Assembly: GCF_013315695.1 (NCBI RefSeq)
Contig: NZ_CP054353.1
Length of the DNA stretch: 64,000 nt
Strand: one strand, 5' to 3'
From: Escherichia coli
GTDB taxonomy: Bacteria > Pseudomonadota > Gammaproteobacteria > Enterobacterales > Enterobacteriaceae
A model generated the notes under the pieces. That model worked only from the letters and a program-made list of their open reading frames with translations. It had not been told where the DNA came from and searched no databases. Made by a program: the position numbers and the translations under genes. Positions 2,030-57,629 of the stretch are shown here, piece after piece. Within the stretch, counting starts at the first letter, position 1. Each line of letters begins with the position of its first letter.

Positions 2030-2048
2030 GCATTTCTGGCGATGGTGT

Positions 2049-3287
2049 TTATTCCGCGTTTTCGTGAATATGTTTGCTGCTGGCGGGTAGTAAACCGTCG
2101 GCACGGAACATCGCTTTAATTCCACGAATCGCCTGGCGAATACGATCGCGGTTTTCAATCAGTGCAAAGCGAACATGGGTGTCGCCGTAGTCGCCAAAGC
2201 CAATCCCTGGAGAGACACAGACCTTCGCTTCGTTAAGCAATTTCTTGGCAAATTCCAGTGAACCCATGGCCGCATATGGTTCCGGGATTTTCGCCCAGAC
2301 ATACATCGAAGCCTTCGGCATTTCGACCATCCAGCCCGCTTCATGCAGCCCTTTTACCAGTACATCACGGCGGCGTTTGTACTGTTCGGCAATATCGCGC
2401 ACGCACTGTTGATCGCCCTCCAGTGCCGCAATCGCCGCCACCTGCAACGGCGTAAAGGTGCCGTAATCGTGATAGCTTTTAATACGTGCCAACGCGCTGA
2501 CCAGCGTTTTGTTACCGACCATAAAGCCGATACGCCAGCCCGCCATGTTGTAACTTTTCGACAGCGTAAAGAACTCGACCGCCACATCGCGTGCACCTGG
2601 CACCTGCATGATTGACGGCGCTTTCCAGCCATCGTAGACGATATCGGCATAGGCCAGGTCATGGACCACCAGCACATCGTAGCGTTTCGCCAGCGCCACT
2701 ACTTTTTCGAAGAACTCCAGCTCCACGCATTGCGCAGTTGGGTTCGAGGGGAAGCCGAGGATCATCATCTTCGGTTTCGGATAACTTTCGCGAATGGCAC
2801 GTTCCAGTTCGTTGAAGAAATCGACACCTTCCACCAGCGGCACTGAGCGTACCTGCGCCCCGGCAATCACCGCGCCGTAAATATGAATGGGGTAACTTGG
2901 ATTCGGCACCAGCACTGTGTCACCGTGATCCAGCGTCGCCAGCATCAGATGCGCCAGGCCCTCTTTCGAACCAATAGTGACGATGGCTTCTGATTCCGGG
3001 TCGATTTCAACGTCGTAGCGATCCTGATACCAGCGGGAAATGGCGCGACGTAGCCGCGGAATGCCGCGTGAAGTGGAGTAACCATGCGTGTCCGGGCGCT
3101 GGGCCACCGTACATAATTTTTCGACGATATGCGGCGGAGTCGCACCGTCCGGGTTACCCATACTGAAATCGATAATATCTTCGCCGCGCCGACGCGCAGC
3201 CATTTTCAGTTCAGCGGTAATGTTAAAAACGTAGGGCGGGAGACGATCAATACGCGTAAAGCGACGTTCAGGGCGAGTGTCAGCCAT
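2049..3287 (-). CDS. alaC: PLP-dependent aminotransferase (glutamate-pyruvate aminotransferase AlaC), 412 aa
   Basis: 412-aa ORF with class I aminotransferase features, including the [15 protein letters not shown]-lysine region. Confidence 0.9.
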
Positions 3288-3663
3288 AATGTCCTCAGAT
3301 TAACGTTAGCGCCCGGACCGTCCGAGCGACGTCGCCACGATGGTGGCTGTTTTGAAAATAGCCTGATTAATTTCTGTCTGTCCAGCGTTTTAGAACATTT
3401 TTATCAATGGCTTTAAATGAGGAACTCCACTTCAAAAACAGGAAATTTATCTGCGCTAACAAGAAAATTACCACTCATTTTATTAACATTATAATTTCAA
3501 TAAATTTACCAAGCAGATGTGCATTATCAAGAGATGCATTGCTAATACACCATTTATCCTTCAATCCCCTTTTAAAATTGTGGCTTTTCCTCAAAAACGG
3601 CCTGCTGGTCATCAGCCTTCAGGTTACCTATCATAGAGGTTTAATCCTTATTCAGAGTCACCC

Positions 3664-5361: not shown

Positions 5362-5375
5362 GCCGGAGTGATATT

Positions 5376-6110
5376 GTGAAAGTCATCATTGTTGAAGACG
5401 AATTCCTGGCACAACAGGAACTGAGCTGGCTAATTAAAGAGCACAGCCAGATGGAGATTGTCGGCACCTTTGACGACGGTCTGGACGTGTTGAAGTTTTT
5501 GCAGCATAACCGCGTCGACGCCATTTTTCTGGATATCAATATTCCGTCGCTGGATGGTGTGTTGCTGGCGCAAAACATCAGCCAGTTCGCCCATAAACCG
5601 TTTATTGTGTTCATCACCGCGTGGAAAGAACATGCGGTAGAAGCGTTTGAACTGGAAGCGTTTGACTACATTCTCAAACCGTATCAGGAGTCACGCATTA
5701 CCGGGATGCTGCAAAAACTGGAAGCAGCCTGGCAACAACAGCAGACCAGCAGTACGCCTGCCGCGACGGTAACGCGTGAGAATGACACCATTAATCTGGT
5801 GAAAGATGAGCGAATCATCGTCACGCCCATTAACGATATCTATTACGCCGAAGCGCATGAGAAAATGACCTTTGTCTATACGCGGCGTGAATCCTACGTA
5901 ATGCCGATGAACATTACCGAGTTTTGCAGCAAGCTGCCGCCGTCGCATTTTTTCCGCTGCCATCGCTCATTTTGTGTCAATCTGAACAAAATCCGCGAGA
6001 TCGAACCGTGGTTTAATAACACCTATATTCTGCGGCTGAAAGATCTGGATTTTGAAGTGCCGGTCAGCCGCAGCAAAGTTAAAGAATTCCGCCAGTTAAT
6101 GCATCTTTAA
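5376..6110 (+). CDS. ypdB: LytTR-family response regulator, 244 aa (YpdB)
   Basis: Chose GTG at 5376 (VKVIIVEDE) with GGAG upstream; receiver domain plus C-terminal LytTR DNA-binding domain; immediately follows ypdA. Confidence 0.9.
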   Translation: MKVIIVEDEFLAQQELSWLIKEHSQMEIVGTFDDGLDVLKFLQHNRVDAIFLDINIPSLDGVLLAQNISQFAHKPFIVFITAWKEHAVEAFELEAFDYILKPYQESRITGMLQKLEAAWQQQQTSSTPAATVTRENDTINLVKDERIIVTPINDIYYAEAHEKMTFVYTRRESYVMPMNITEFCSKLPPSHFFRCHRSFCVNLNKIREIEPWFNNTYILRLKDLDFEVPVSRSKVKEFRQLMHL

Positions 6111-6122
6111 TCGGGAACTTTC

Positions 6123-6980
6123 ATGAAAGCACCAGGCTTGCCCGCCGATCAACAATTTTTCGCCGATCTGTTCAGCGGCCTGGTGCTTAACCCGCAACTA
6201 CTGGGGCGCGTCTGGTTTGCCAGCCAGCCTGCCTCATTGCCAGTGGGCAGTTTATGTATTGATTTTCCCCGTCTGGATATCGTGCTACGCGGCGAATACG
6301 GCAATCTGCTGGAAGCAAAGCAGCAACGTATGGTGGAAGGAGAAATGCTGTTTATTCCGGCACGCGCGGCTAATTTACCGGTCAACAACAAACCGGTGAT
6401 GCTGTTAAGCCTGGTGTTCGCACCGACCTGGCTTGGGTTATCGTTTTACGATAGCCGCACCACGTCGTTGTTGCATCCTGCCCGCCAGATCCAGCTTCCC
6501 AGCCTGCAACGCGGCGAAGGTGAAGCGATGCTTACCGCCCTCACCCATCTTAGCCGTTCGCCGCTGGAGCAGAATATCATTCAGCCACTGGTGTTAAGTT
6601 TGCTGCATCTTTGCCGCAACGTGGTGAATATGCCACCGGGCAATTCGCAGCCGCGCGGCGATTTTCTCTATCACAGCATTTGTAACTGGGTTCAGGATAA
6701 TTATGCCCAGCAGCTCACCCGCGAGAGCGTGGCTCAGTTTTTTAATATCACGCCCAATCATCTGTCAAAACTGTTTGCTCAGCATGGAACAATGCGTTTT
6801 ATCGAGTATGTTCGCTGGGTACGAATGGCAAAGGCAAGGATGATTTTGCAGAAATATCATCTGTCGATTCATGAAGTGGCACAGCGTTGCGGTTTTCCGG
6901 ACAGCGACTATTTTTGTCGCATTTTCCGGCGTCAGTTTGGCCTGACGCCGGGAGAGTACAGCGCCCGTTTTCAGGGCTAA
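6123..6980 (+). CDS. ypdC: AraC/XylS-family transcriptional regulator, 285 aa
   Basis: C-terminal AraC-type HTH region (HLSKLF...RFIEYVRWVRMAKA...); 13 bp downstream of ypdB. Confidence 0.85.
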   Translation: MKAPGLPADQQFFADLFSGLVLNPQLLGRVWFASQPASLPVGSLCIDFPRLDIVLRGEYGNLLEAKQQRMVEGEMLFIPARAANLPVNNKPVMLLSLVFAPTWLGLSFYDSRTTSLLHPARQIQLPSLQRGEGEAMLTALTHLSRSPLEQNIIQPLVLSLLHLCRNVVNMPPGNSQPRGDFLYHSICNWVQDNYAQQLTRESVAQFFNITPNHLSKLFAQHGTMRFIEYVRWVRMAKARMILQKYHLSIHEVAQRCGFPDSDYFCRIFRRQFGLTPGEYSARFQG

Positions 6981-6982
6981 CG

Positions 6983-9478
6983 TCAGAAGGTTAATTCCGT
7001 TTCCAGCAGCGTCAGGATGCTTTGCGCATCTTGCGCGGCGAACAGCGACTGGCGGAAGTTTTTATTCACCAGTTTGCGCGCCAGCTGCGAGAAGACTTTC
7101 ACATGGCTCATCCCTTCGTTAGCACCTAACGTCAGCATGATCACCAGTTCGACTTCGCCCATTTCTGACTGCCAGTCAACCGGTTTCACCAGCCGGGCAA
7201 TGCTGATACTGGAATGACGGATCCACTGAGATTTGGTGTGCGGGATCGCTACGCCAAAACCAACGCCGGTGGTAACAATCTCTTCCCGCTGCCAGACATC
7301 TTCTTCCAGCTCAAACGGATGTTCAGTACGCCCGTTAACGCCGAGGTTACCGCACAGGAACTGGATCGCCTGCTCTTTATTGCTAAAGGCCTGATCAACG
7401 AAGATATTCTCCAGCGCCAGCAGCGGGCGAACGTCTTCTTCCGGCGTAAACGCGGTGAGTAACGCTTCAATCTCCTGCGCGCTGCGGCATTCACATGCCT
7501 GACGCGCCAGTTCCCGACACGCCTCGCTATCCAGTTGACGAAGCTGGCTTTTCACCGCCGGAATGCGCGGGCTACTCATACTCAGCTCGTCCAGGCCCAG
7601 CCCAAGCAGTAGCGGCAGATAACGACTTTCACCGCCCAGTTCACCGCAAATACCTACCCATTTACCCCGCTGATGCGCAGTGGTAACAATCTGCTGCAAC
7701 ATGCGCAGGAACGATGGCGTAATCGGGTTATACAGCGGCGATACGCGCGGGTTATTACGATCGACCGCATACAGATACTGGGTCATATCGTTGGAGCCGA
7801 TACTGAAGAAATCGACCTCATCGCAGAAGTGATCGATGATGTAGCACACCGACGGCACTTCCACCATGATACCCAGCGTAATCGTCTCTGCATGACGCAG
7901 GCCATCGCGCTTAAGCTCAACGATCGCTTTTTGGATCTCGCCCTTCACCCATAAGATCTGATCGAGGCTGTGAACCATCGGGATCATCAACTGGGCGTTG
8001 CCGAAACAGGCAGCACGCAAAATCGCCCGCAGTTGAGTGCGGAACAGGCCAGCAAATTCCGGGTAAATACGTACCGCGCGATAGCCGAGGAACGGGTTCT
8101 CTTCCTGGGGAATATTCAGATAAGGAATGCTTTTATCGCCGCCGATGTCCATCGTGCGGAAGATAATCGGCTTGTCGCCCGCCGCCAGTAGCACCTGCTG
8201 GTAGGCTTCAAATTGCTCCTGCTCGTCCGGCGCGCTGTCGCGATCCATATAGAGCATTTCGGTACGGAACAGCCCGACACCTTCCGCGCCGTTGGCAAAC
8301 GCGCCTGGCGCTTCCAGCGCGGTGCCGATATTCGCCGCAATATCAATACGCTTGTTATCACGGGAATAGGCCAGCTGCGCGGCGGCCTGCGCCTGTTGTT
8401 TTTGGCGTTTATCCGCCAGCGTCTGCGCAACCTGATAATAACCGCTCACCGCGTCATTCGGGTTAATCGCCAGCACGCCGCACTGGGCGTCAAGCACTGC
8501 AGGTTGCCCGGCATAACGGGCAATCGCATCCAGCGGCAGGCCGCTCAGTACCGGGATCGCCGAAGCGCGGGCCAGGATCAGGGTATGCGAGGTGCGCCCG
8601 GTTTTCTCCAGAATCATGCCCGCAAGATTTTTTAAATCGAGGCTCAAAAACTGGCTTGGGGTTAAATCTTCAGCCACCAGAATAGTCGGTTTTTCAAGCA
8701 CCAGATTATTGCGCGGTTTTAGTTCCGGCCAGGTGATATGCAGCAACTGTTCGCTGATATCGCGAATGTCGCTGACCCGCTCGCGCAGATAATCGCTGGC
8801 AGAAGCAGAAAGTTTGGCACAAACCTGCTCCATATTGCTGATGATCGCCGCCCCCAGCCCCTGATGCTGTTCTGCCATCAGGTGACGGATATTGCCTGCA
8901 AATTCATCATCCTGAATCAGCGACAAATGGGCGCTGAGGATAGTTTTGCTTTCGCCGTCACGCTCACGCAATTGCTGGTTCAGTTGCTCGGCAAGCGTTG
9001 CCAGACTGTGCTCCAGCAGGGTGGAATCTTGCGCACTGGCCGGTATTGCCCGATAACTGTCGAGGCTGTCGCTCTGTAACAGGGTCAGCGTACCCACGCC
9101 GACGCCGCTTGCCAGCACATTGCCGTACAGTAAATCAGGATTCAGACGGCTTAATGAACGCGGCAGCGGATGCGCCGTCAGTTCTGCCTGCGTTGGCTGG
9201 ACGCTGTCGCTGTCGATAAAGCGCGCCTGGATGTACTCTTCCAGCACGCGCCGCGCCTGCTCTTCATCGCTGCCGCTAATGTTCAGGCTGCAACTGTCAT
9301 TAAATAGGGTGCCGGTGCCAATCAGCGCCAGCGAGCTTTTCGCATCTGCCTTTGCGTTCTGGCGATGGTTGATGAAGGTGATTTCGCTTTGCCACTGGCT
9401 GCACTGTTCTTTAAGTTCCCACGCCGGACGAGCATGCAGACCGTTAGGCAGAGGACAGAGAAATTGAATCGTTAGCAT
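6983..9478 (-). CDS. fryA: PTS multiphosphoryl transfer protein (EIIA-HPr-EI fusion), 831 aa
   Basis: N-terminal HPr-like domain (GLHARPA), internal EI core and C-terminal EIIA-like domain; last gene of a minus-strand operon. Confidence 0.9.
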   Translation of the reverse strand: MLTIQFLCPLPNGLHARPAWELKEQCSQWQSEITFINHRQNAKADAKSSLALIGTGTLFNDSCSLNISGSDEEQARRVLEEYIQARFIDSDSVQPTQAELTAHPLPRSLSRLNPDLLYGNVLASGVGVGTLTLLQSDSLDSYRAIPASAQDSTLLEHSLATLAEQLNQQLRERDGESKTILSAHLSLIQDDEFAGNIRHLMAEQHQGLGAAIISNMEQVCAKLSASASDYLRERVSDIRDISEQLLHITWPELKPRNNLVLEKPTILVAEDLTPSQFLSLDLKNLAGMILEKTGRTSHTLILARASAIPVLSGLPLDAIARYAGQPAVLDAQCGVLAINPNDAVSGYYQVAQTLADKRQKQQAQAAAQLAYSRDNKRIDIAANIGTALEAPGAFANGAEGVGLFRTEMLYMDRDSAPDEQEQFEAYQQVLLAAGDKPIIFRTMDIGGDKSIPYLNIPQEENPFLGYRAVRIYPEFAGLFRTQLRAILRAACFGNAQLMIPMVHSLDQILWVKGEIQKAIVELKRDGLRHAETITLGIMVEVPSVCYIIDHFCDEVDFFSIGSNDMTQYLYAVDRNNPRVSPLYNPITPSFLRMLQQIVTTAHQRGKWVGICGELGGESRYLPLLLGLGLDELSMSSPRIPAVKSQLRQLDSEACRELARQACECRSAQEIEALLTAFTPEEDVRPLLALENIFVDQAFSNKEQAIQFLCGNLGVNGRTEHPFELEEDVWQREEIVTTGVGFGVAIPHTKSQWIRHSSISIARLVKPVDWQSEMGEVELVIMLTLGANEGMSHVKVFSQLARKLVNKNFRQSLFAAQDAQSILTLLETELTF

Positions 9479-12908: not shown

Positions 12909-13235
12909 TTACTGTTGTTCAGAGGCAATCATCTCTTCGATTTCTTTGATGATTCCCGCAGCGTTTTTAATTGTGTCCTGCAAAGTGATTTCATAAACGT
13001 CGCGTGATTCGAAACGTTCGTTATCTTCCGGGGTAACTGCCACGGAGTGGATGATGATGGTCGCTTCGGCGATATCCTGCGCCGTCAGGCGATTCTGGAT
13101 ACCGTCCGCGCCCTGGGTTTCAATTTTCACTTCATAACCGGCTTCTACCGCCGCTTCTTCCAGCGCCTGAGCGGCCATAAAAGTGTGAGCCAGGCCCATT
13201 GGGCAGGCACATAAGGCAATCAGTTTCTTACTCAT
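12909..13235 (-). CDS. fryB: PTS fructose-like EIIB, 108 aa
   Basis: Small soluble protein with active-site cysteine motif (ALCACPMGLAHTFMAA); first gene of the fry operon. Confidence 0.85.
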   Translation of the reverse strand: MSKKLIALCACPMGLAHTFMAAQALEEAAVEAGYEVKIETQGADGIQNRLTAQDIAEATIIIHSVAVTPEDNERFESRDVYEITLQDTIKNAAGIIKEIEEMIASEQQ

Positions 13236-19270: not shown

Positions 19271-20696
19271 TAATGCCAGTCAGTTAAGCAACTGACTGGC
19301 TCTTTTTCGGGGCTGTGGGGTATTTCCAGGGCCTCTCCTTTACCACTCTCGGGAAGGCCCTTTCCCTTCTTGTCGGTAATTTCACAAGTTGTCCCATACT
19401 TGCAAGATCGCGCATCAGCTCCGGTATACGTCCCGGTGAAGCGCCCTGCAATGTCATCAGCATTCTCATCACCATTCCGCATGATTCTGAGAAACTCAGT
19501 TGATTCGGCCAGTAACCTTTCAGATGTTCCGCCATTTTAATCATCTGATATCTCACCAGATTATAAGCCAGTAAGACACCCCACAGCTCTTGCTCCACAA
19601 GCTCCGGTTTTTTACTTCTCAGCGTCAGCCTGCTCAGTTGCATCGTCTGTTTTATCTCCCTGTATCCCAGTTCGATTTCCCAGCGATGACTGTACAGATC
19701 CGCCATTTCTCCTCCGGGGAAGCGCATGGCGTCCGTCATCGACGTCAGCAGATGGCAGACTTTTCCTTTGCGCGTCACGGTCAGCAGGCGGGCTGTCACT
19801 TCATTTCCCAGTCCCGGCCACTTTTTTCGTGCCTGCGGGCTGGTTTTCAGCTTCACCAGATGATCGCCTTTACCCAGTTTTCTGATCTCTTCATATTGCG
19901 CTCCCTTTCTGAGAGGTATCATCCAGTGGCGGTGTTCTCCCGCCAGGCTCCAGGCATTTAACAGTCCCAGTGAGTAATAACCTTTATCCATTAACGTCAG
20001 AGTGTTATCGCCGGTTTGTTCTATAAGTTGCTCAGCAAGCTCATTTTCGCTGTTCTTCATCGTGCCGAAGGCTGCAGCCGTCAGCAGATGGCTGGTCAGT
20101 TCCATCTGGCAGACCATTTTGACCTGCGGGTAGAGCGCCGGGTTCCCGGCATGTGTCTGGCGGGGGAAGGCTGCATCGTTCTCTGGTGTATCCGGTGTGC
20201 GCCAGAACACACCATCGATGGCCAGCAGGGTCAGGCCGCACCAGTGCGGATGCGGCGTGGCGTTATGCCAGAGCTGCGCTGTTTTCGTGAACACGCGGCG
20301 GACAGCCTCACTTCCCAGGCGCTGGCGGGCCTGAATAACGGCACTGGGGGCAACGAAGGGGCGATTGCCCGGCAGCATGATGTCCAGGCGATTCACAATC
20401 TGGTGAAGAGGTTCTTTACGCTCAAGCGCCATGCCAACAATACACCAGACCATCATTTCGAGGGGAAGACGGCGCTTGCGTAGCGTTACAGTACCTGATT
20501 CGGCAAGGCAACGAGAGATGAGTTCGGGGTCGAGGTAATCCCCCAGAGAAGTCAGTGGGTTACGCAGAGAATCGTAACGGGATACCAGATCAAGAGCCTG
20601 TCCAATGTGCATAAAAAAATCCGGAAACAAGTGAGCGTTTCCGGATTCTTACACAGCCACTGGATCGGTCAACTGATCCTTAACTGATCGGCATTA
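19271..20696 (-). mobile_element. IS4 insertion sequence, complete (1426 bp)
   Basis: Terminal inverted repeats TAATGCCAGTCAGTTAAG (19271-19288) and TAATGCCGATCAGTTAAG (reverse complement of 20679-20696), 16 of 18 identical; length exactly 1426 bp; one 442-aa IS4-family transposase ORF; flanked by a 13-bp direct repeat. Confidence 0.85.
19284..20612 (-). CDS. insG: IS4 transposase (DDE, IS4 family), 442 aa
   Basis: ORF 19284-20630; ATG at 20612 gives MHIGQALDL... (442 aa), with an in-frame TTG 6 codons upstream; contains the IS4-family YREK signature ([15 protein letters not shown]). Confidence 0.85.
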
Positions 20697-23374: not shown

Positions 23375-23548
23375 CGGCAAATTGCAACGTGTAGTTTCAA
23401 TCGCTGAAAAATCAGGCAAATGAACAATTTTGGAAAACCGCTCGCATTCAGTAGTTATTCATGTCACGGTTTCCTGTAAAGTGGTGTTATAAAATGAACT
23501 ACTAATAGACCCACATACATTCAGGGAATTGTTATGTTCAAGGAGAGG

Positions 23549-23893
23549 ATGACGCCAGATGAACTTGCCAGACTGACCGGCTATAGCCGCCAGACCATTA
23601 ATAAATGGGTACGCAAGGAAGGCTGGACAACGTCACCAAAACCAGGCGTCCAGGGTGGCAAAGCTCGACTGGTTCACGTCAATGAACAGGTTCGTGAATA
23701 TATTCGCAATGCTGAACGTCCAGAAGGTCAGGGAGAAGCGCCAGCCCTTTCTGGTGATGCGCCGCTTGAAGTGTTGCTGGTGACACTGGCGAAAGAGATG
23801 ACGCCAGTTGAACAAAAACAGTTTACATCCTTGCTTCTGCGGGAAGGGATTATCGGATTATTACAACGCTTAGGGATTCGCGATAGCAAATAA
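23549..23893 (+). CDS. yfeC: small HTH DNA-binding protein (YfeC), 114 aa
   Basis: ORF 23534-23893; chose ATG at 23549 with AAGGAGAGG upstream; N-terminal HTH-like segment (ELARLTGYSRQTINKWVRKEGW). Confidence 0.8.
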   Translation: MTPDELARLTGYSRQTINKWVRKEGWTTSPKPGVQGGKARLVHVNEQVREYIRNAERPEGQGEAPALSGDAPLEVLLVTLAKEMTPVEQKQFTSLLLREGIIGLLQRLGIRDSK

Positions 23894-23894
23894 T

Positions 23895-24287
23895 ATGAAA
23901 AGATTACGCAATAAAATGACCACCGAAGAACTGGCTGAATGCCTCGGTGTGGCTAAACAAACTGTTAACCGTTGGATCAGAGAAAAAGGCTGGAAAACGG
24001 AAAAATTTCCTGGCGTGAAAGGCGGTCGTGCCAGACTTATTCTGGTCGATACGCAAGTTTGCGATTTTATTCAGAACACGCCAGCCTTCCATAACACGCC
24101 GATGCTTCTGGAAGCCGAAGAACCCCTTGCCGAATACGCACCGGGGATTCGCACTCCTGCTTATCGGCAAATCATCAGCGCAATAGACAACATGACTCAC
24201 AGTGAGCAGGAAAAAGTTGCGCAATTTTTGTCACGCGAAGGAATTCGTAATTTCCTTGCTCGTCTCGACATAGATGAATCAGCTTGA
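23895..24287 (+). CDS. yfeD: small HTH DNA-binding protein, paralog of YfeC (YfeD), 130 aa
   Basis: Shares the motif EELA..LG..KQT.N.W.R.KGW.T...PGV.GG.ARL with yfeC; start is 1 bp after the yfeC stop. Confidence 0.8.
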   Translation: MKRLRNKMTTEELAECLGVAKQTVNRWIREKGWKTEKFPGVKGGRARLILVDTQVCDFIQNTPAFHNTPMLLEAEEPLAEYAPGIRTPAYRQIISAIDNMTHSEQEKVAQFLSREGIRNFLARLDIDESA

Positions 24288-24326
24288 CATCCTCCACGCC
24301 CTGAATGACGAGGATCCCTGCTACGT

Positions 24327-25535
24327 TCAGGCTGTCACCTGAATCATTTCGGTGGGTTCCTGCTTCAACGAGCGGCCTGACTGCACCATCTCTCCACAGG
24401 CAAGAACGGCGTGCCCCGCCGCTAAAATGTTACGAGCGCCATTTACATCAGCGTTCGCTGTATATCCACATGCCTGGCATCTGAATTTACTTTGTGACAG
24501 GCGATTTTCTTTCGCTGTATGACCACAGCACGCGCAACGCTGGCTTGTGTACGCTGGCGGAACAGCAAGCACCTGACCGCCACGCCAGAGCTGCTTGTAC
24601 TCAAGCTGGCGGCGCATTTCATACCAGCCCTGATCCAGTATCGAACGGTTTAAACCTGATTTTGCCCGGACATTGCGCCCCGGCTGGCTGACCGTACCCG
24701 CTGCTGACTTTGACATGTTGCTGACCTTCAAATCCTCAATGACTATCATTGCGTGGTTTTTGCTGACGGTCGTTGTGACTTTGTGAAGGTAGTCCCTGCG
24801 GATATTTGCGATACGGGAATGCAGTCGCTGTATTTTGCGTTTCTGCTTCTGCCAGTTATTGCTGAATTCGACCTTGCGGCTTAACTGTCGCTGAAGTCTC
24901 GCCAGCGTCTTCTGGTTTTTCTGAAAACTGTTTACAGGCTCAAAGACTGTGCCATCTGACAGCGTGGCGAGTTTAGCCACGCCAGCATCCAGCCCGACCA
25001 TTGATGCTGAAGGGTGAACCGGAGTGGATACTTCACTTTCTGTCTGAATACTGATGTACCACTTACCGCAGGACTGGCTGACAGTGACATTTTTCACAAC
25101 ACCCGTGACCTGACGGCTGTTCCGGTAGCGCATCCAGCCAAGTTTCGGCAGAAAAATACGGCTGTTTTCCTGATCGAGCTTAACGCCCTGCGGGTAGCGG
25201 AATGCATCATTCTGTCCCCGCTTTTTGAATCGGGGAAAAGCAGCCCGCTTCTGGAAGAAGTTTTTGTAAGCCCGCTCAAGGTCTTTCAGTGACTGTTGCA
25301 ATGGCTGTGAGGGCGAATCTTTAAGCCATTGCATTTCAGTGGCGTTTTTCCACTCAACCAGCCAGGAAGCCATTTTCCCGTAAGGGATGTATTTATTACC
25401 GGCCTCATGATTCTCATTCTGAAGCGCCAGAGCACGATTGAAAACGAAACGACATGCGCCTGCGAAGCGCCTCATTTCACACTCCTGTTGACCACCTGGT
25501 CTTAACTGGAATTTAAATGCCTGTAATCGTTTCAC
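24327..25535 (-). CDS. tnpB: TnpB (OrfB) RNA-guided endonuclease of IS200/IS605 family, 402 aa
   Basis: Conserved N-terminus ([10 protein letters not shown]...[13 protein letters not shown]), RuvC-I VGLDAGV, Ruv[12 protein letters not shown], zinc finger CACCGH...CQACGY, Ruv[17 protein letters not shown] start at 25535 has no SD, internal ATG at 25475 has strong AGGAG and would give 382 aa. Confidence 0.85.
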
Positions 25536-25542
25536 AGGTCAA

Positions 25543-26030
25543 ATGATACTTTGGTCTGTGAAAAAAGAAACCGATATCCGGCGTGGAAGGCATTGTGTTT
25601 TCCTGATGCATGTTCACCTGGTCTTTGTCCCAAATACCGACGCCAGATTTTTGACCATGACGCGACAGAAAAACTACGCACTTACTATTCAAATGTATGT
25701 GCTGATTTTGAAGCTGAACTGGTTGAAATGGATGGCGAACCAGATCACGTCCATTTGTTAATTAACTATCCTCCCAAACTGGCGATATCCAGTCTGGTAA
25801 ACAGCCTCAAAGGCGTATCGGGTAGGTGACTGCGACGAGATCGACCAGATATTGCAGTCAGGTATTACTACAAAGGCGTTTTGTGGAGTCCTGGCTATTT
25901 TGCCAGTAGCTGCGGAGGTGCGCCAATATCCGTCATCCGCCAATACATTGAACAACAGCAAACACCTGGTCAGGTGGAAAACCGCGCCTTATATCCCCGC
26001 CCTGAAGGACGGGGTTTTACGGCGCACCGG
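25543..26030 (+). pseudogene. tnpA: tnpA (IS200/IS605 Y1 HUH transposase), disrupted
   Basis: TnpA-like sequence is split: ...HCVFLMHVHLVFVP in one frame, KYRRQIF...DHVHLLINYPPK...SLKGVSGR in another (about 1-nt loss near 25628-25631), then an in-frame TGA at 25827-25829, then ...WSPGYFASSCGGAPISVIRQYIEQQ. Confidence 0.65.
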
Positions 26031-26040
26031 ATAAATAAAA

Positions 26041-26067
26041 AACGGCAGGGGTATCTCTCCTGCCGTT
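26041..26067. terminator. gltX rho-independent terminator (bidirectional hairpin)
   Basis: AACGGCAGG-loop-CCTGCCGTT 9-bp stem; on the minus strand followed by TTTTTTATTTAT, 18 bp after the gltX stop. Confidence 0.65.
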
Positions 26068-26084
26068 TATCTTTTATGCGCTAA

Positions 26085-27500
26085 TTACTGCTGATTTTCG
26101 CGTTCAGCAATAAAAGCCAGCGCTTTGTTGATACGCTCGATACTGCGGGTCTTACCGATTGCGTGAACGGTAACATCCAGCGCTGGAGACTGCCCCGCAC
26201 CGGTTACGGCGACACGCAGCGGCATACCAACTTTACCCATACCCACTTCCAGCTCATCCGCCGTCGCCTGAATAGCGTGATGAACGTTTTCAGCGGTCCA
26301 GTCAGTAATCGCAGTCAGTTTGTCACGAACCACTTCCAGCGGCTGACGCGCTACCGGACGCAGATGTTTTTTCGCGGCGTCGGCATCGAACTCAGCAAAA
26401 TCTTCGTAGAAATAACGGCAGCTCTGTGCCATCTCTTTCAGCGTCTTGCAGCGTTCGCCCAGCAGTTTCACCAGATCAGCCAGCTGCGGGCCGTTACGGG
26501 TATCGATATTTTCCTGCTCAATGTGCCACTGTAAGTGAGTAGCAACATACTCCGGCGGCAGCGCGTTAATGTAGTGATGGTTCAGCCACAGCAGCTTGTC
26601 GGTGTTGAACGCACTGGCAGATTTGCTGACGGCATTCAGAGTGAAGTATTTGATCATCTCTTCACGAGTGAAGATTTCCTGATCGCCGTGGGACCAGCCC
26701 AGACGCACCAGATAGTTCAGCAGTGCTTCTGGCAGATAACCATCATCACGATACTGCATTACGCTGACCGCCCCGTGACGTTTGGACAGTTTTTTACCGT
26801 CATCGCCGTTGATCATAGAAACGTGCGCGTAAACCGGTACCGGCGCTTTCAGGGCTTTAAGAATGTTGATCTGGCGCGGCGTGTTGTTGATATGGTCTTC
26901 GCCACGGATAACATGGGTGATTTCCATATCCCAGTCATCAACAACCACACAGAAGTTATAGGTTGGGGAACCATCGGTACGGCGAATGATCAGATCATCC
27001 AGCTCCTGGTTGCTGAACTCAATCGGGCCACGGATCTGATCGTCAAAAACAACAGAACCTTCCTGCGGGTTAGCAAAACGTACAACGCACGGTTCATCAT
27101 CAGCATGATGCTCATGGCTGTGGCGGCAGCGACCGTCATAACGCGGCTTCTCACCTTTCGCCATTTGCTCTTCGCGCAGCGCTTCCAGGCGCTCTTTAGA
27201 GCAATAGCATTTATAAGCTGTGCCCTCTTCCAGCATCTGATCGATCACCGCGTTGTAGCGATCAAAACGTTTGGTCTGGTAGTACGGACCTTCATCCCAC
27301 TCCAGGCTCAGCCAGTTCATGCCATCCATAATGGCTTCGATAGCTTCCGGCGTGGAACGCTCAAGATCGGTGTCTTCAATACGCAGCACGAACTCACCGC
27401 CGTGGTTACGTGCAAAAAGCCAGGAGTAAAGAGCAGTACGCGCGCCGCCAACGTGCAGATAGCCTGTTGGGCTTGGCGCGAAGCGAGTTTTGATTTTCAT
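26085..27500 (-). CDS. gltX: glutamate--tRNA ligase, 471 aa
   Basis: Class I aaRS with HVGG-type motif ([18 protein letters not shown]) and KLSKR (KMSKS-type) motif. Confidence 0.95.
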
Positions 27501-27713
27501 GAAATGGCCTTACGTTTAGAAAGATGCCGACAACCGGCAAATCCTGGAAAAATTGAGTGGGCGATATTCTATCACTCCCGCCTGATTCCTCAATGTAGTT
27601 CGGGTTGCAACCTTACGCATTATTGTTTTCGTTGACAAATTGCGCAACACGGTCTGTTTTGCGATCATCTTGCTTAAATTTACGACGAACGAACAATTTC
27701 TTTAGAAAATGCG

Positions 27714-27741
27714 TTGACTCATTTTGAACTCTCCCTATAAT
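27714..27741 (+). promoter_or_regulatory. sigma70 promoter of the tRNA-Val/Lys operon
   Basis: TTGACT (27714-27719), 16-bp spacer, TATAAT (27736-27741), GC-rich discriminator, AT-rich UP-like region upstream; about 18 bp before the first tRNA. Confidence 0.65.
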
Positions 27742-27759
27742 GCGACTCCACACAGCGGG

Positions 27760-27835
27760 GGGTGATTAGCTCAGCTGGGAGAGCACCTCCCTTACAAGGA
27801 GGGGGTCGGCGGTTCGATCCCGTCATCACCCACCA
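27760..27835 (+). tRNA. valU: tRNA-Val (anticodon UAC)
   Basis: 76 nt GGGUGAUUAGCUCAGCUGGGAGAGCACCUCCCUUACAAGGAGGGGGUCGGCGGUUCGAUCCCGUCAUCACCCACCA; anticodon loop CUUACAA; encoded CCA. Confidence 0.92.
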
Positions 27836-27879
27836 ACTACTTTATGTAGTCTCCGCCGTGTAGCAAGAAATTGAGAAGT

Positions 27880-27955
27880 GGGTGATTAGCTCAGCTGGGA
27901 GAGCACCTCCCTTACAAGGAGGGGGTCGGCGGTTCGATCCCGTCATCACCCACCA
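27880..27955 (+). tRNA. valY: tRNA-Val (anticodon UAC), identical second copy
   Basis: Exact duplicate of the previous tRNA after a 44-bp spacer; which K-12 paralog name applies is uncertain. Confidence 0.9.
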
Positions 27956-27959
27956 CTTC

Positions 27960-28035
27960 GGGTCGTTAGCTCAGTTGGTAGAGCAGTTGACTTTTAATCA
28001 ATTGGTCGCAGGTTCGAATCCTGCACGACCCACCA
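27960..28035 (+). tRNA. lysV: tRNA-Lys (anticodon UUU)
   Basis: 76 nt GGGUCGUUAGCUCAGUUGGUAGAGCAGUUGACUUUUAAUCAAUUGGUCGCAGGUUCGAAUCCUGCACGACCCACCA, 4 bp after the preceding tRNA-Val. Confidence 0.92.
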
Positions 28036-28042
28036 ATGTAAA

Positions 28043-28066
28043 AAAGCGCCCTAAAGGCGATTTTTT
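28043..28066 (+). terminator. terminator of the tRNA operon (short stem plus T-run)
   Basis: CGCC-CTAAA-GGCG short hairpin followed by ATTTTTTG right after lysV. Confidence 0.4.
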
Positions 28067-28145
28067 GCTATCTGCAATTTGCGAAATTGCCTGATGCGCT
28101 TCGCTTATCAGACCAACTATGTCCGGCAGTTCCCGTGCCTCTCAT

Positions 28146-29030
28146 CTACTGCGCCAACGCCGCCAGCAGTTTAACCAGCGCGGGCGTCACCTGCTGCGTT
28201 TCATAAACAATATATAAGTCTGCCGGGATGCGTTCTTTGAGCGGACGGAATATGACACCTGGCCAGTTCATCTGCGCGTAACTGTCCGCTATCAATGTGA
28301 TACCAATACCCATACTGACCATGGCGAGTACCGTTTGCGGTTCATTAACTTCGCAAATAACAACCGGTGAAAATCCCACCTGCTGGCAAACTCGCTGCAA
28401 AAAATCCCAGTCAGTGTACACGGGCGGCATTGTAACGAAATACTCGTCACGTAGCGCTTCCAGCGGGACGGTGGAAAATGATGAGAGATGATGCTCTTCA
28501 GGCATCGCCACCACAAACGCCGATTCATGCAACCGTAAGCTGGTAAAACCAGTCGGTGGTTCTGTCGCCATTCGCCAGATCCCGGCATCAAGTTCGCGGC
28601 GTTCCAGCAAGGCCATTTGCATCGCGGGCATCTTTTCGCGAAACAGAACTTCAACGTTAGGATTTTCTCTAAGGAATCGCCGCATAACCGGGCGCATCCG
28701 TCCCCACATTGCCGTTCCCACAACCCCGAGTTCAATCCGCCCTGCTTCTCCCCGACCTATTTGTTCAACCCGAGCCAATACATTATTTGCATTCACCAGC
28801 AATCGACGCGATTCTTCCATCAAGATTTTGCCCGCGTGTGTCAGTACGACGCTGCGCGAATGGCGAATAAAAAGCTGCGTGCCGAGTTGATTTTCCAGCT
28901 CTTTAATATGAATACTGAGCGGAGGCTGAGACATATTTAAACGCGCTGCTGCGCGACCAAAATGCAACTCTTCCGCTACGGCAAGAAAATAACGGAGCAA
29001 CTTAAGATCTGTTCTATATACGCGTTCCAT
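28146..29030 (-). CDS. xapR: LysR-type transcriptional activator of the xanthosine operon, 294 aa
   Basis: ORF 28146-29045; chose ATG at 29030 (MERVYRTDLKLL); N-terminal LysR HTH. Confidence 0.85.
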   Translation of the reverse strand: MERVYRTDLKLLRYFLAVAEELHFGRAAARLNMSQPPLSIHIKELENQLGTQLFIRHSRSVVLTHAGKILMEESRRLLVNANNVLARVEQIGRGEAGRIELGVVGTAMWGRMRPVMRRFLRENPNVEVLFREKMPAMQMALLERRELDAGIWRMATEPPTGFTSLRLHESAFVVAMPEEHHLSSFSTVPLEALRDEYFVTMPPVYTDWDFLQRVCQQVGFSPVVICEVNEPQTVLAMVSMGIGITLIADSYAQMNWPGVIFRPLKERIPADLYIVYETQQVTPALVKLLAALAQ

Positions 29031-29282
29031 AATTAAGTGCTCCATATAAAAAAATATATCGTATTAAATTATCATGGCATAAAGTATTTCACCACCAGAT
29101 ATCCGACATACATAAACACGATGGATAATATACCCGGCAATACATTTGGAACAGGAATAGGTAATCGCACGATTGTAAACAAAGCACCAATGCCAAAACC
29201 AACGCCAGAAGAAAATAAAATATCTTTCACTAATTAACCTTTATCATAAAAGCAGCCCCAAGGAACAGAGCTGCGAATCCTT

Positions 29283-30539
29283 TTAATGTGTAACTGAACG
29301 ATGCGTTATCTTTTCAGGGTCATGGTTATATTTAAACCCAAAGAAAAATATCACTGCGAGGAAAAGAGCATACCCTGCAAACATCAGCCAAATGGTATGC
29401 CAATCTTTTACGCCATCCACCGAGAAGTAATCCACTGCCATACCGCTCAGAATCGAGCCAACCCATGCGCCGACGCCATTTACCATCGTCATAAAAAGGC
29501 CCTGGGCGCTGGCACGAATGCTGGAATCAACTTCCTGTTCGACAAAGACCGAACCAGAAATATTGAAGAAATCGAATGCACAACCGTAAACAATCATCGA
29601 AAGCAGCAGCAAAATAAACCCGGTTGGTGATGGGTCGCCATAGGCAAAGAAGCCAAAGCGCAGCGTCCACGCCACCATACTCATCAGCATGACGGTTTTA
29701 ATACCGAAACGCTTCAAAAAGAACGGTATCGTCAGAATGAAACCGACTTCAGCCATCTGTGAAACTGACAGTAAAATGGACGGATATTTCACCACGAAGC
29801 TATCAGCAAACTCAGGATTACGGGCGAAATCATGCAGGAACGGGTTGCCAAAAACGTTGGTAATTTGCAGCACCGCGCCCAGCATCATGGCGAAGAGGAA
29901 AAAGATAGCCATGCGTGGATTTTTAAACAGCACGAAGGCATCCAGACCCAGCTTGCTGGCAAGCGATGTAGTCGCTTTTTTCTCCGCAACCGGAATCTTC
30001 GGCAAAGTCAGCGCATAAGCCGACAGCAGCAATGACGCACCGGACGCGATATACAGCTGCAGACTACTCAATTCCAGATGCAGCAGGCTTACTGCCCACA
30101 TGGCGACAATGAACCCCACCGTACCAAAAACGCGAATGGGCGGGAAAGCGGTCACCGGGTCAAGCCCTGCCTGGGCAAGACAGGAATAAGAGACGCTGTT
30201 CGATAACGCAATAGTCGGCATAAACGCCATCGCATTGACTAACATCACCCAAAACATCATATCCGGATCAGTTACGGATGCCGCATAAAAAAGTACGCCC
30301 GCACACACCAGGTGACACAGCATGTATGCACGTTCTGCACGCAGCCATTTGTCTGCGATGATCCCCATTATACCAGGCATAATAATCGCGGCGATCCCTT
30401 TGGAACTGTAAACCATGCCAACATTAGCGCCGGTGAAATGAAGGGTATTAATCATGTAAGAACCGAGGGTAACCAGCCAGCTCCCCCAGATAAAATATTG
30501 CAAAAAGGACATTACCTTTAAGCGCAAAGCGATGCTCAT
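29283..30539 (-). CDS. xapB: xanthosine/nucleoside:H+ symporter (MFS, NHS family), 418 aa
   Basis: 12-TM MFS permease between xapA and xapR. Confidence 0.9.
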   Translation of the reverse strand: MSIALRLKVMSFLQYFIWGSWLVTLGSYMINTLHFTGANVGMVYSSKGIAAIIMPGIMGIIADKWLRAERAYMLCHLVCAGVLFYAASVTDPDMMFWVMLVNAMAFMPTIALSNSVSYSCLAQAGLDPVTAFPPIRVFGTVGFIVAMWAVSLLHLELSSLQLYIASGASLLLSAYALTLPKIPVAEKKATTSLASKLGLDAFVLFKNPRMAIFFLFAMMLGAVLQITNVFGNPFLHDFARNPEFADSFVVKYPSILLSVSQMAEVGFILTIPFFLKRFGIKTVMLMSMVAWTLRFGFFAYGDPSPTGFILLLLSMIVYGCAFDFFNISGSVFVEQEVDSSIRASAQGLFMTMVNGVGAWVGSILSGMAVDYFSVDGVKDWHTIWLMFAGYALFLAVIFFFGFKYNHDPEKITHRSVTH

Positions 30540-30598
30540 AATCGTTTCCTTGTCGCATCATATGGCCTCACCCGCGAGGCCGTTTCTTATTGTTTTTC

Positions 30599-31432
30599 TC
30601 AGGCAATTTTGCGCAGAAAGCCACAAATAAGGTTGATGAAGTTCTGCTTAGAGAGCTCCGCAGCCGCCAGCGTTTGCGCATGTGACAATTTCACATCGCT
30701 TAAACCTTCCGCCATATTGGTAATCGCAGAGACCGCAACGACTTTAAGTTCGCAATGGCGAGCAGAAATAACCTCAGGCACCACAGACATACCAACAACA
30801 TCCCCACCAATAATTTGCATCATGCGAATTTCCGCCGCAGTCTCGAAATTCGGACCCGGATACGAGACGAACACGCCCTCCGTCAGAGGGAACCCCTCTT
30901 CTTTCGCCACTTTTTGTAACAGTGCGCGGTATTCCGCATCGTAGGCATTCGCCAGCGAGAAGAAGCGCTCACCAAAACGTTCATCATTAAGACCCACCAT
31001 CGGCGTTCCCGGCATGGTGTTGATATGATCTTTCAATGCGACCAGACTGCCGGCCCCCACTTCAGGACGCAGTGAGCCAGCCGCATTGGTGCTGAACAGC
31101 AACTCGCAGCCCAGCAACTTAAAGGTACGGATTGCATCCGTCATGATGGTCATCCCACGACCTTCGTAGAAATGTCCGCGACCTTTCATGCACACCACTG
31201 GCACCCCCTGGAGATAACCCAGCACCAGCTCACCCGCATGGCCATGTACGGTACTTACCGGGAACCCAGGCAGCTTTTCGTAGGAAATTGCGACCGCGTT
31301 CTCAATCTGATCGGCCAGCGCGCCCAGCCCGGAACCTAAAATAAAGGCCACTCGTGGCGTGAAATCAGGTTTATAAGTCTTGATAATATCTACGCAATAC
31401 AGTGGGTTATGAGAAAACTGAGCCTGATACAT
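30599..31432 (-). CDS. xapA: purine nucleoside phosphorylase II (xanthosine phosphorylase), 277 aa
   Basis: PNP family (trimeric type) sequence. Confidence 0.9.
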   Translation of the reverse strand: MYQAQFSHNPLYCVDIIKTYKPDFTPRVAFILGSGLGALADQIENAVAISYEKLPGFPVSTVHGHAGELVLGYLQGVPVVCMKGRGHFYEGRGMTIMTDAIRTFKLLGCELLFSTNAAGSLRPEVGAGSLVALKDHINTMPGTPMVGLNDERFGERFFSLANAYDAEYRALLQKVAKEEGFPLTEGVFVSYPGPNFETAAEIRMMQIIGGDVVGMSVVPEVISARHCELKVVAVSAITNMAEGLSDVKLSHAQTLAAAELSKQNFINLICGFLRKIA

Positions 31433-31680
31433 ATATATCCTTTTTTTGTAGGGTGGAATCTAACGCCTTTTTATAACGAGATTGCCCTAACTCATACCAA
31501 TACACTTTTTTCATGTATCCGATAGTTATTCGATATCGATATATTTATATTTTTTCACTATTAATAGACTGAAAAAACTGTATTGGTACTCTCCTTTCCA
31601 TTGCATTAACAATATGCCGCTTTTAATCAACCTTTTTATTAAGCAATCAACTAATAACGATCAGCATAGGGAATTATGCT

Positions 31681-32445
31681 ATGAAAAAACATCTTTTTAC
31701 TCTGACACTCTCTTCTGTATTGGCGATACCAGCAGTATCCCATGCAGAATTTAAAGGCGGTTTTGCTGATATAGGTATTCATTATCTTGACTGGACTAGC
31801 AGAACCACTGAGAAATCGTCGACCAAATCACACAAAGATGATTTTGGATATCTGGAACTGGAAGGCGGCGCTAACTTTAGTTGGGGAGAAATGTACGGGT
31901 TCTTCGACTGGGAAAACTTTTATAATAATCGTCATGATAAACCGGGTAGCGAGCAGCGTTACACATTTAAAAATACCAACCGTATTTACCTGGGTGACAC
32001 CGGATTTAATCTCTACTTGCATGCGTATGGCACCTACGGTTCTGCGAATCGTGTGAATTTCCATGACGATATGTTCCTTTACGGGATCGGCTACAATTTC
32101 ACCGGCAGCGGTTGGTGGTTCAAACCGTTCTTTGCAAAACGCTATACAGACCAAACCTATTATACCGGCGATAACGGTTATGTCGCCGGTTGGGTTGCAG
32201 GTTACAGCTTTATGCTGGGCAGTGAGAAATTCACCCTCACCAACTGGAACGAGTACGAGTTTGATCGTGATGCCACCTACGCGGCAGGTAATGGCGGCAA
32301 AGAAGGTCTGAACGGTGCCGTCGCACTTTGGTGGAATGCAACTTCACACATCACCACAGGGATTCAGTATCGTTATGCGGATGACAAACTGGGCGAAGAT
32401 TTTTACCAGGATGCAATAATCTACTCCATCAAATTTAATTTCTGA
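31681..32445 (+). CDS. yfeN: outer-membrane beta-barrel protein, Tsx-like nucleoside channel family (putative), 254 aa
   Basis: Signal peptide MKKHLFTLTLSSVLAIPAVSHA, aromatic-rich alternating beta-strand pattern, C-terminal Phe (IKFNF); divergent from xapA. Confidence 0.8.
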   Translation: MKKHLFTLTLSSVLAIPAVSHAEFKGGFADIGIHYLDWTSRTTEKSSTKSHKDDFGYLELEGGANFSWGEMYGFFDWENFYNNRHDKPGSEQRYTFKNTNRIYLGDTGFNLYLHAYGTYGSANRVNFHDDMFLYGIGYNFTGSGWWFKPFFAKRYTDQTYYTGDNGYVAGWVAGYSFMLGSEKFTLTNWNEYEFDRDATYAAGNGGKEGLNGAVALWWNATSHITTGIQYRYADDKLGEDFYQDAIIYSIKFNF

Positions 32446-45322: not shown

Positions 45323-46420
45323 TCAGGCGCTTTGTGCGAGAGCAAGTTCCTCATCGCGGGTTTCAATACGCTCGTCGCCGTTATACAGCCGCGCATGTTG
45401 CAGACCAACGAATAAACGCTCGCCACGCTGCGGGGCATCGTCGCCATGCATCACAACCGTCAGCGCTTCGTTGTACCACCCCAGCGGCTGCACGACTAAT
45501 TGGGTGTAGTGGCCTTTCGGGCTGGCTTCCAGTACCTGTACCGGCAGCGGCGAATCGAGGCTGGTACGGCGGCTGATATCCACTTCCCACGGACGCAGGA
45601 AGAGATCCACTGGCCCCTGATACGCAGGTGTATAGCCCAGCGGCCAGCGATGTGCGCCAACATGGAACTGCCCGCCGCGAATGGTTCCCTGCAGGCGGTT
45701 CACTTCGCCCATAAATTCGAGTACAAAACGGGTCGCTGGTTCGCGCCATACCTGGTCCGGTGCATCAGCCTGCTCGATATTGCCCTGGCTCATCACCACC
45801 ACACGATCGGCTACTTCGGTCGCTTCTTCCTGATCATGGGTCACAAACACGCTGGTGAATTTCAGCTCTTCATGTAACTGACGCAGCCAGCGACGCAACT
45901 CTTTACGCACCTGCGCATCCAGCGCGCCAAACGGTTCATCAAGCAGCAGAATTTGCGGTTCTACAGCCAGCGCGCGCGCCAGTGCCACACGCTGTTTCTG
46001 GCCGCCGGAAAGCTGTGCTGGATAACGATCCGCCAGATGCGCAAGCTGCACCATCTCCAGCAAGTTTGTCACTTTCGCTTTGATAGCTGCGGCATTCGGG
46101 CGCTCGCGACGCGGCAGCACCGTCAGGCCGAAAGCGATATTGTCGAACACCGTCATATGGCGGAACAGCGCGTAATGCTGAAACACGAAACCGACTTTAC
46201 GATCGCGCGCATGCAGGCGGCTGACGTCGGTGCCGTGGAAGCGAATATGCCCGCTGGTTTGATGCTCCAGCCCGGCGATAATTCGCAGCAGCGTGGTTTT
46301 CCCGGAACCGGACGGCCCCAGCAACGCGACCATCTGACCAGAAGGAATATCCAGTGAGATATCGTTCAGCACCTGGGTGCGACCAAAAGACTTCTTAATA
46401 TTGGCAATCTCAATGCTCAT
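45323..46420 (-). CDS. cysA: sulfate/thiosulfate ABC transporter ATPase, 365 aa
   Basis: Walker [13 protein letters not shown] signature LSGGQKQR, Walker B LLLDEP. Confidence 0.95.
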
Positions 46421-56494: not shown

Positions 56495-56554
56495 GTCACT
56501 TCCTTTGGTTATTCAATAACGTTGCTTGGAGTGCAAATTCACCAAAAAGTGCCG

Positions 56555-57004
56555 TTATTCTTTTTCTTCATTAAAACAAGCGCGTAAACGTCGATTGGTC
56601 AGCAGCCAGATTAACGCCACGATATCCGCCACTACCAGCGCCAGACCGATACCGCTAACGGATTCACCGTTCAGCCACAGCCACGGTTGCCAGCAAAGTA
56701 AAACCACCTGCGCCAACAGCAACAGAAAATAGAGCACATGCCAGATACGGGGAAATGAAGCCCGCCGACCACTCAGCAAAAATGCCAGCACCGCCGGAAT
56801 ACCGGGAATCAACCCCAGCCAGAAATTATCGTGATCGGGATAAAACAGATTTAGCAGTGCAGTACCCTGCTCGCGCGACGCACCGGCAATGACAAACAGC
56901 ACCCAGGTTCGCGCCTGAAGCAATAGCACAAGCCAGAAGAGCAAGGGTAAACGCAGGCGACCGTGCGCATCATAATGGACAGGATGAAACTCAGTACTCT
57001 TCAT
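56555..57004 (-). CDS. yfeZ: inner-membrane protein of unknown function, 149 aa
   Basis: ORF 56555-57010; chose ATG at 57004 (MKSTEF); four hydrophobic segments. Confidence 0.75.
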
Positions 57005-57416
57005 CTTCAATCAAACGCTTACCCAGACTCAGTACGTCGGCGTGTTCATATCCCAGGCGTTCATACATTCCGAGCACCATGTCGTTATCTTCCGGCACGT
57101 TGATCTGAATTTTCGGACAGCCGCGAGCAATCAGCTTTTTCTCCAACCGATTAAGCAACGCATTAGCAATCCCACGCCCACGAAACTCTGGATGCACGCC
57201 AAGATAATAAGCAGACCCGCGATGCCCGTCATAACCGCCCATCACCGTTCCGACCACTTCACCGTTTACCTCAGCGACCAGAAACAAACTGACGTCATGG
57301 TTCATCTTACGCTCGATGTCCATTTCCGGATCGTTCCACGGACGCAGCAAGTCGCAACGCTCCCAAAGGGTGATGACCTCTTCGAAATCTTCCTGGCGAA
57401 ATACGCGTATCTCCAT
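56991..57416 (-). CDS. ypeA: GNAT-family N-acetyltransferase, 141 aa
   Basis: ORF 56991-57527; chose ATG at 57416 ([14 protein letters not shown]); acetyl-CoA motif RGRGIANAL; 3' end overlaps yfeZ start by 14 nt. Confidence 0.8.
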
Positions 57417-57629
57417 GGTATTCGTTACCTTTTTGCGGGTTAAAAGGCTGATTATGGCGTGAACGGTCGAATTAGCCAATATCTGACGAAAATCGGTTGA
57501 AAAAGTGGCATAATGGGGAGTTGTCAACTATTGAAATGAAAAGTAAAACAATTCTCAACAGCAAACGGTCGTAACGGATTACGCGATACGATATAACATC
57601 TGGAACTTTATTATTACAACTCAGGCCGT

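Follow-up and report, generated by a model that had tools for sequence, protein, structure and literature searches.

Our analysis indicates that ypeA and yfeZ of Escherichia coli very probably form a two-gene operon in which yfeZ is translated from an AUG lying within a 14-nt overlap of the two coding regions, probably for the most part by reinitiation. The overlap is an ordinary operon junction that is already contained in the reference annotation. It lies in a stretch of 64,000 nucleotides (NCBI RefSeq assembly GCF_013315695.1, contig NZ_CP054353.1), here called the window. A first-pass annotation, made from the sequence alone, had stated that ypeA ends 14 nt inside yfeZ on the same strand, which agrees with the sequence, the list of open reading frames (ORFs), and RefSeq. 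The overlap is correct as called, because RefSeq carries the same gene pair with the same 14-nt overlap: both coding sequences (CDSs) are annotated with an identical junction in strains MS 21-1, BL21(DE3), and K-12 MG1655 (Table 1).

Table 1. Features of the ypeA-yfeZ locus and other gene junctions (window coordinates unless another genome is named)
Feature	Coordinates	Strand	Remarks
ypeA CDS	57416..56991	minus	141 aa; ATG 57416-57414; stop TGA 56993-56991
yfeZ CDS	57004..56555	minus	149 aa; start ATG 57004-57002
14-nt overlap ATGAAGAGTACTGA	56991..57004	minus	YpeA (D)EEY-stop and YfeZ MKST(E)
yfeZ start ATG	57002..57004	minus	made by ypeA codons GAT and GAA (D138-E139)
ypeA stop TGA	56991..56993	minus	G and A also serve as positions 1 and 2 of yfeZ codon 5
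In-frame TTG	57008..57010	minus	two codons 5' of the ATG; opens the program-made ORF; overlaps the ypeA Ile136 codon
Weak Shine-Dalgarno-like CTGGGTAAG	57018..57026	minus	spacing of 13 nt to the ATG and 7 nt to the TTG
Sigma-70 promoter-like TTGGCT-17-CATAAT	57451..57479	minus	consensus scan; 5' of ypeA
yfeZ, b2433 (K-12 MG1655, RefSeq)	2551277-2551726
ypeA, b2434 (K-12 MG1655, RefSeq)	2551713-2552138
cysP/cysU			TAATG, 1-nt overlap
cysU/cysW			TAATG, 1-nt overlap
cysW/cysA ATGAGCATTGA	46410-46420	minus	11-nt overlap; RefSeq annotated
ypdF/ypdE			TAATG, 1-nt overlap
ypeB/yfeH			convergent; TTAA, 4 nt shared

On the minus strand, the ypeA frame ends with ATT GAA GAT GAA GAG TAC TGA. The yfeZ frame, which is +1 relative to that of ypeA, reads TTG (57010-57008) AAG ATG (57004-57002) AAG AGT ACT GAG and then TTT, and its AUG lies 11 nt before the ypeA UGA; the figure of 14 nt counts the ypeA stop codon. 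Since yfeZ starts 5' of the ypeA stop and the two genes share a strand but not a frame, they are a co-directional overlapping pair. Both are genuine coding genes, as judged from their Pfam domains, their orthologues in 80 species, and variation that is dominated by third positions in each gene's own frame. YpeA belongs to the GNAT acetyltransferase family (Pfam PF00583, E=1.9e-21), and YfeZ is a DUF2919 inner-membrane protein (PF11143, E=8e-50, residues 6-145 of 149) that scores 169.4 bits against a Pfam gathering cutoff of 27.2. The overlap touches only the tails of the two proteins, namely, the last residues of the conserved YpeA C terminus and the MKSTE of YfeZ, which lies N-terminal to the DUF2919 domain.

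The program-made ORF containing ypeA reaches 37 codons further upstream, to a TTG at 57527 (window 57417-57527, minus strand), across the ypeA promoter region. This extension is an artifact of ORF listing and does not mean that the gene is longer, since every record examined starts ypeA at the annotated ATG at 57416. Within ypeA, Supplementary Table S3 of the INRI-seq study (PMC9825163) lists an alternative initiation site in frame at +111 nt; the position (K-12 coordinate 2552026) corresponds to the internal Met38 codon (window 57305, minus strand).

The first-pass annotation had left a choice between ATG 57004 and TTG 57010 as the start of yfeZ, and comparison across species settles it in favor of the ATG. 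One genome per species was scanned, which yielded 80 Enterobacteriaceae loci whose YpeA proteins are 90 to 100% identical. At 74 of these loci, the last ypeA codon ends 10 nt past the first base of the yfeZ ATG, i.e., the same 14-nt overlap is present, and all 74 carry both the ATG and the junction motif GAAG-ATG-AAG-ArT-AyT-GA. Nearly all YfeZ orthologues are 149 aa long, with the N terminus MK(S/N)(T/I)(E/D).

The imprint of the second frame can be read from synonymous sites of ypeA. In the ungapped ypeA CDSs of 72 species, 121 degenerate codon columns encode an amino acid that is at least 90% conserved. The third base is invariant in only four of them (Glu137 GAA, Asp138 GAT, Glu139 GAA, and the stop codon TGA), all within the last six codons; the hypergeometric probability of this arrangement, C(6,4)/C(121,4) = 15/8,495,410, is about 2e-6, which puts the conservation beyond chance, with the reservation that the 72 to 74 species are related and the counts are not independent events. 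At Asp138, the third base, which doubles as the second position of the yfeZ ATG, is T in 72/72 sequences, whereas the other six conserved Asp codons all use both T and C there. Likewise, the second position of yfeZ Lys2 is supplied by the A of Glu139. The ypeA stop is TGA in all 72 overlapping loci, and yfeZ codon 5 always encodes Glu or Asp. The changes that are seen inside the overlap are silent in ypeA yet alter YfeZ (Ser/Asn3 and Thr/Ile4), and YpeA therefore dominates the constraint in the overlap.

If yfeZ started at TTG 57010-57008, its product would have 151 aa (MKMKSTE...) and the overlap would be 20 nt long. In its favor, the program-made ORF begins with this in-frame TTG, the weak Shine-Dalgarno (SD)-like CTGGGTAAG of E. 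coli is better spaced for it (7 nt), and some gene callers pick the equivalent TTG for a paralogue (P0182). However, the site coincides with a free synonymous position of ypeA: the Ile136 codon is ATT in 36, ATC in 28, and ATA in 8 of 72 sequences, which in the yfeZ frame corresponds to TTG, TCG, or a TAG stop, so that in some species a stop directly precedes the ATG. Because this third base varies freely, the TTG cannot be the conserved yfeZ start. The ATG, in contrast, is invariant and is the start that RefSeq uses, and we regard the TTG start as quite improbable. A minor, E. coli-specific TTG proteoform of YfeZ is possible.

It could also be argued that yfeZ starts 3' of the ypeA stop, in which case there would be no coding overlap and the annotated ATG would be an artifact of gene calling. 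Two observations are in line with this reading: relatives in which the two genes are separated make a protein that is five residues shorter, and the Pfam domain begins at residue 6. The yfeZ-frame coding signal, however, begins right after the ypeA stop, with summed entropies of 14.0, 6.6, and 31.9 at positions 1, 2, and 3 of codons 6 to 30. Codons 6 to 16 are under purifying selection in this frame: Asp12 and Gly15 are the same in all sequences, with free third bases, and Pro8 is near-invariant (71/74). No ATG, GTG, or TTG before yfeZ codon 17 occurs in more than 1 of the 74 sequences, none is universal, and in the window the next in-frame ATG, GTG, or TTG is codon 22. Since no other conserved start precedes codon 17, the ATG inside ypeA is the sole start able to explain the yfeZ-frame signal. 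Its T is, in addition, the sole fully invariant Asp third base in ypeA. A downstream start is thus extremely improbable and, like the TTG start, was rejected on the comparative evidence. By the sequence comparison, the start of yfeZ is ATG 57004-57002. The literature and supplements that we searched contained no start-site, N-terminal peptide, or coupling data for yfeZ. Likewise, the supplements of the TRAINSPOTTER N-terminomics, TetRP, and INRI-seq studies, some of whose tables were incomplete, contained no yfeZ entry; INRI-seq Table S2, in its incomplete form, does not list yfeZ, an absence that is uninformative.

Within E. coli, the ypeA-yfeZ locus was found in 5,425 of 5,426 complete genomes, and the 46-nt junction is unchanged in 3,817 of the 5,425. 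Alignment to the window covered three variant strains, two with substitutions and CP057580.1 with a deletion. All substitutions fall outside the 14-nt overlap, and among the three only the deletion in CP057580.1 reaches it. In this strain (L089, positions 780-830; corresponding to window position 56992), the ypeA TGA is without its A (TACTGAGTTT becomes TACTGGTTC), and ypeA is predicted to read in frame into yfeZ, giving a YpeA::YfeZ fusion. Either a true mutation or an error in the assembly could account for the deletion. A database protein of 151 aa (P0007, MEDEEYWFHPV...) is called from an ATT.

Such a fusion raises the question of whether YpeA-YfeZ is made by programmed +1 frameshifting at the junction. 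The position of yfeZ in the +1 frame of ypeA and the 1-nt deletion in the TGA of CP057580.1, which fuses both frames, would be compatible with it. However, the junction GAG UAC UGA G contains neither a slippery or shift-prone motif nor a well-placed stimulatory SD, independent initiation explains the invariant ATG and Lys2, and the fusion occurs in only 1 of 5,425 assemblies. Programmed frameshifting is therefore very unlikely, and it was rejected for the missing slippery motif and because the lone fusion allele is a 1-nt deletion in one genome.

Strain MS 21-1 is 99.98% identical to the window over positions 31960-64000. Several differences elsewhere were recorded. Between nupC and pdeA, the window carries a 448-aa transposase-like ORF (19284-20630, minus strand), presumably of the IS4 family, and this segment of about 1.4 kb is absent from the otherwise near-identical MS 21-1. 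Conversely, MS 21-1 carries a Mu-like prophage (L084, positions 23428-32160; Mor, gp16, Gam, an ExeA-family protein, and a DDE transposase) that splits a phosphotransferase gene beside ypdE; window positions 1-7415 hold a different sequence, without this prophage. Downstream of yfeZ, the yfeY-yfeZ spacer is 60 nt long in the window (56495-56554) and in K-12, whereas BL21(DE3) (L002, positions 1596-1801) and some other strains have about 146 additional bases there. No inverted repeats were detected in this 146-bp insertion of BL21(DE3).

The sigma-70 promoter-like sequence 5' of ypeA (Table 1) is likely the promoter of the operon. In PMC3946193, ypeA-yfeZ is given as one unit, with the same promoter hexamers as those at window 57479-57451, and the overlap leaves no space for a terminator between the genes. 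The consensus scan gave another promoter-like match inside ypeA (57232-57204), which is weak (9/12 matches); a separate yfeZ transcript from this site is possible.

We propose that ypeA and yfeZ would be cotranscribed from the promoter at about 57479-57451 (minus strand) and that yfeZ would be translated from AUG 57004-57002 within the last ypeA codons. By the sequence and standard ribosome geometry, a ribosome terminating at the ypeA UGA would cover the yfeZ AUG, which would be 8 nt 5' of the ribosomal P site. After completing ypeA, ribosomes may then shift a few bases backwards and restart at the yfeZ AUG, which would account for most YfeZ synthesis; SD-independent de novo initiation at the same AUG would be a second route. 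Termination-reinitiation is probably the main route because the AUG has no well-placed SD, is situated in unstructured, purine-rich RNA, and would lie under the terminating ribosome.

The best SD match of yfeZ, CUGGGUAAG, forms a duplex of -3.7 kcal/mol with the 3' end of 16S rRNA and lies 13 nt 5' of the ATG, compared with -10.3 kcal/mol for cysA and yfeX in the same window. The median of the best yfeZ match over 74 species is likewise -3.7 kcal/mol, and the third base of a Gly codon within the SD-like stretch varies between species. A weak ribosome-binding site of its own, as found here (-3.7 kcal/mol, 13-nt spacing), is what is looked for in the downstream gene of a coupled pair, though it is not specific to such pairs. 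In species with separated genes, the SD of yfeZ is mostly weak too (-2.5 to -5.3 kcal/mol, with one of -8.8). Thus, a weak SD is not by itself a sign of coupling, and SD strength does not discriminate coupled from uncoupled starts. The 100 nt around the yfeZ start have a minimum free energy of -18.1 kcal/mol against a mean of -24.7 kcal/mol for shuffled sequences (z=+2.05), i.e., the region is less structured than the shuffles. Accordingly, the model in which an occluding RNA structure has to be unfolded by ribosomes translating ypeA was rejected.

There is a plausible, if less than probable, alternative: the overlap is real but a frozen accident without a role in coupling, and free 30S subunits initiate yfeZ de novo at its SD-poor AUG. 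The junction would then be conserved only by the constraint of two frames and because phase-1 overlaps are hard to shorten. Three lines of evidence accord with this explanation, in addition to the low structure of the start region. (i) Separated yfeZ genes are mostly weak in SD too. (ii) Saito et al. 2020 (PMC7043885) describe correct start-site choice without a need for SD pairing. (iii) Coupling efficiency drops with longer overlap: in the work of Tian and Salis, as summarized in a review (PMC12548453), coupling falls as the overlap grows from -4 to -25 nt and is absent at -25 nt. Moreover, Huber et al. 2023 (PMC10666635) took only distances of -8 to +10 nt as predictive of termination-reinitiation, and the -14 nt of ypeA/yfeZ lies outside this range. 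On the other side, the AUG would be covered by a ribosome terminating on ypeA, so that de novo binding would compete with ypeA translation, and separated yfeZ genes are preceded by a TATAAT-like element and by an SD-like AGGYGGG that is closer to the start. The presence of such signals in the separated form suggests that the overlapped form does not rely on them. Neither point is decisive. The proposal that coupling contributes substantially to YfeZ synthesis is plausible, with a slightly better than even chance.

The ypeA/yfeZ overlap is of a known, unremarkable kind, since -14 nt belongs to the common phase-1 class. Huber et al. [quoted passage not shown] There is no essential difference between this class and ypeA/yfeZ, which is a conserved instance fixed in the core Enterobacteriaceae. 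Stop-start pairs of the ATGA (-4) and TAATG/TGATG (-1) types, such as cysP/cysU/cysW, ypdF/ypdE, and the pairs tested by Huber et al. 2019 (PMC6728339), are similar in that the genes are co-directional operon neighbors, the start is within reach of the terminating ribosome, and coupling is likely. They differ in that the yfeZ start lies 11 nt before the ypeA stop and a ribosome would have to go back about 8 nt, and the literature points to lower coupling at overlaps such as this one. A counterpart in the window is cysW/cysA, also a phase-1 long overlap. Here, cysA has a strong, well-spaced SD (CAGGAGGA, -10.3 kcal/mol), whereas that of yfeZ is weak and badly spaced, and CysW and CysA are subunits of one ABC transporter, whereas no complex of YpeA and YfeZ is known.

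The other tight junctions (Table 1), which the first-pass annotation took to suggest widespread translational coupling, are real and can all be read in the sequence. About two dozen co-directional pairs are annotated in 32 kb; four of them overlap, and several more are 1 to 4 nt apart. Genome-wide, about 24% of the co-directional pairs of E. coli lie between -8 and +6 nt (PMC10666635). The tight junctions of the window match this baseline and are therefore typical of E. coli rather than special to the region. In MS 21-1, RefSeq has a 14-codon ORF (L084, positions 13106-13150; approximately window 17737-17693) whose end overlaps the mntH start by 8 nt, again in phase 1, and that may encode a leader peptide.

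Six of the 80 loci depart from the junction pattern (L030, L048, L067, L072, L078, and L079). In five of these six loci with a displaced yfeZ orthologue, the ypeA stop is TAA; Phytobacter massiliensis (L079) retains TGA. In Atlantibacter (L078), ypeA ends with GAG GAC GAA GAG TAT TAA and a hairpin comes next; yfeZ has an ATG of its own there, 552 nt further downstream. Of the four constrained ypeA bases, three are altered, as expected where a second frame no longer has to be preserved. The yfeZ orthologue is also separate in L048, L067, L072, and L079, in most cases with a lipoprotein gene of the opposite strand inserted before it. YfeZ begins with M-YFPSDYD in the first three of these four loci, five residues shorter than in E. 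coli, and starts at a TTG as M-SPADYD in L079. The first five residues of YfeZ are therefore dispensable, which fits the start of the Pfam domain at residue 6.

At two of these loci, Pseudocitrobacter vendiensis (L030, positions 1998-2474) and L048 (positions 853-1329), a diverged DUF2919 paralogue of 158 aa that starts at a TTG (MKMKSTKPLLF...) fills the 14-nt-overlapping position after ypeA, whose stop is TAA there; the closer yfeZ orthologue lies beyond it and has a separate start. In two other genera (L067 and L072), ypeA is followed by truncated remnants of this paralogue.

More distant relatives keep the amiA<->ypeA-yfeZ-yfeY neighborhood but not the overlap. In L085, ypeA ends with TAA and is followed, after 6 nt, by a GTG in the same frame, and the YpeA tail IEDREY provides no ATG; in L087, a gap of 137 nt separates the two genes. 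Because the neighborhood persists without the overlap in these relatives, the overlap is a derived state of the core Enterobacteriaceae. It was created when the Asp-Glu pair GAT-GAA in the conserved YpeA tail supplied the ATG.

Both ypeA and yfeZ are genes of unknown function. A further reading is that the -14 overlap ties YfeZ synthesis to that of YpeA because the proteins work together, for instance, with YfeZ as a membrane anchor or partner of the GNAT acetyltransferase. The amiA<->ypeA-yfeZ-yfeY adjacency persists where YfeZ is only 40 to 50% identical to the E. coli protein, overlapping gene pairs are enriched for subunits of complexes (PMC10666635), and a single-base deletion yields an in-frame YpeA-YfeZ fusion in one strain. 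We consider this role of the overlap unlikely, and the persistent linkage of ypeA and yfeZ is a mild hint that the two genes act together. Point changes that are silent in ypeA exist for both candidate starts: GAT to GAC destroys the yfeZ ATG, and ATT to ATC destroys the TTG. The value of our findings lies mainly in annotation quality, in that the comparison confirms the reference start of yfeZ (ATG, 149 aa), whereas the nearby TTG is not conserved.
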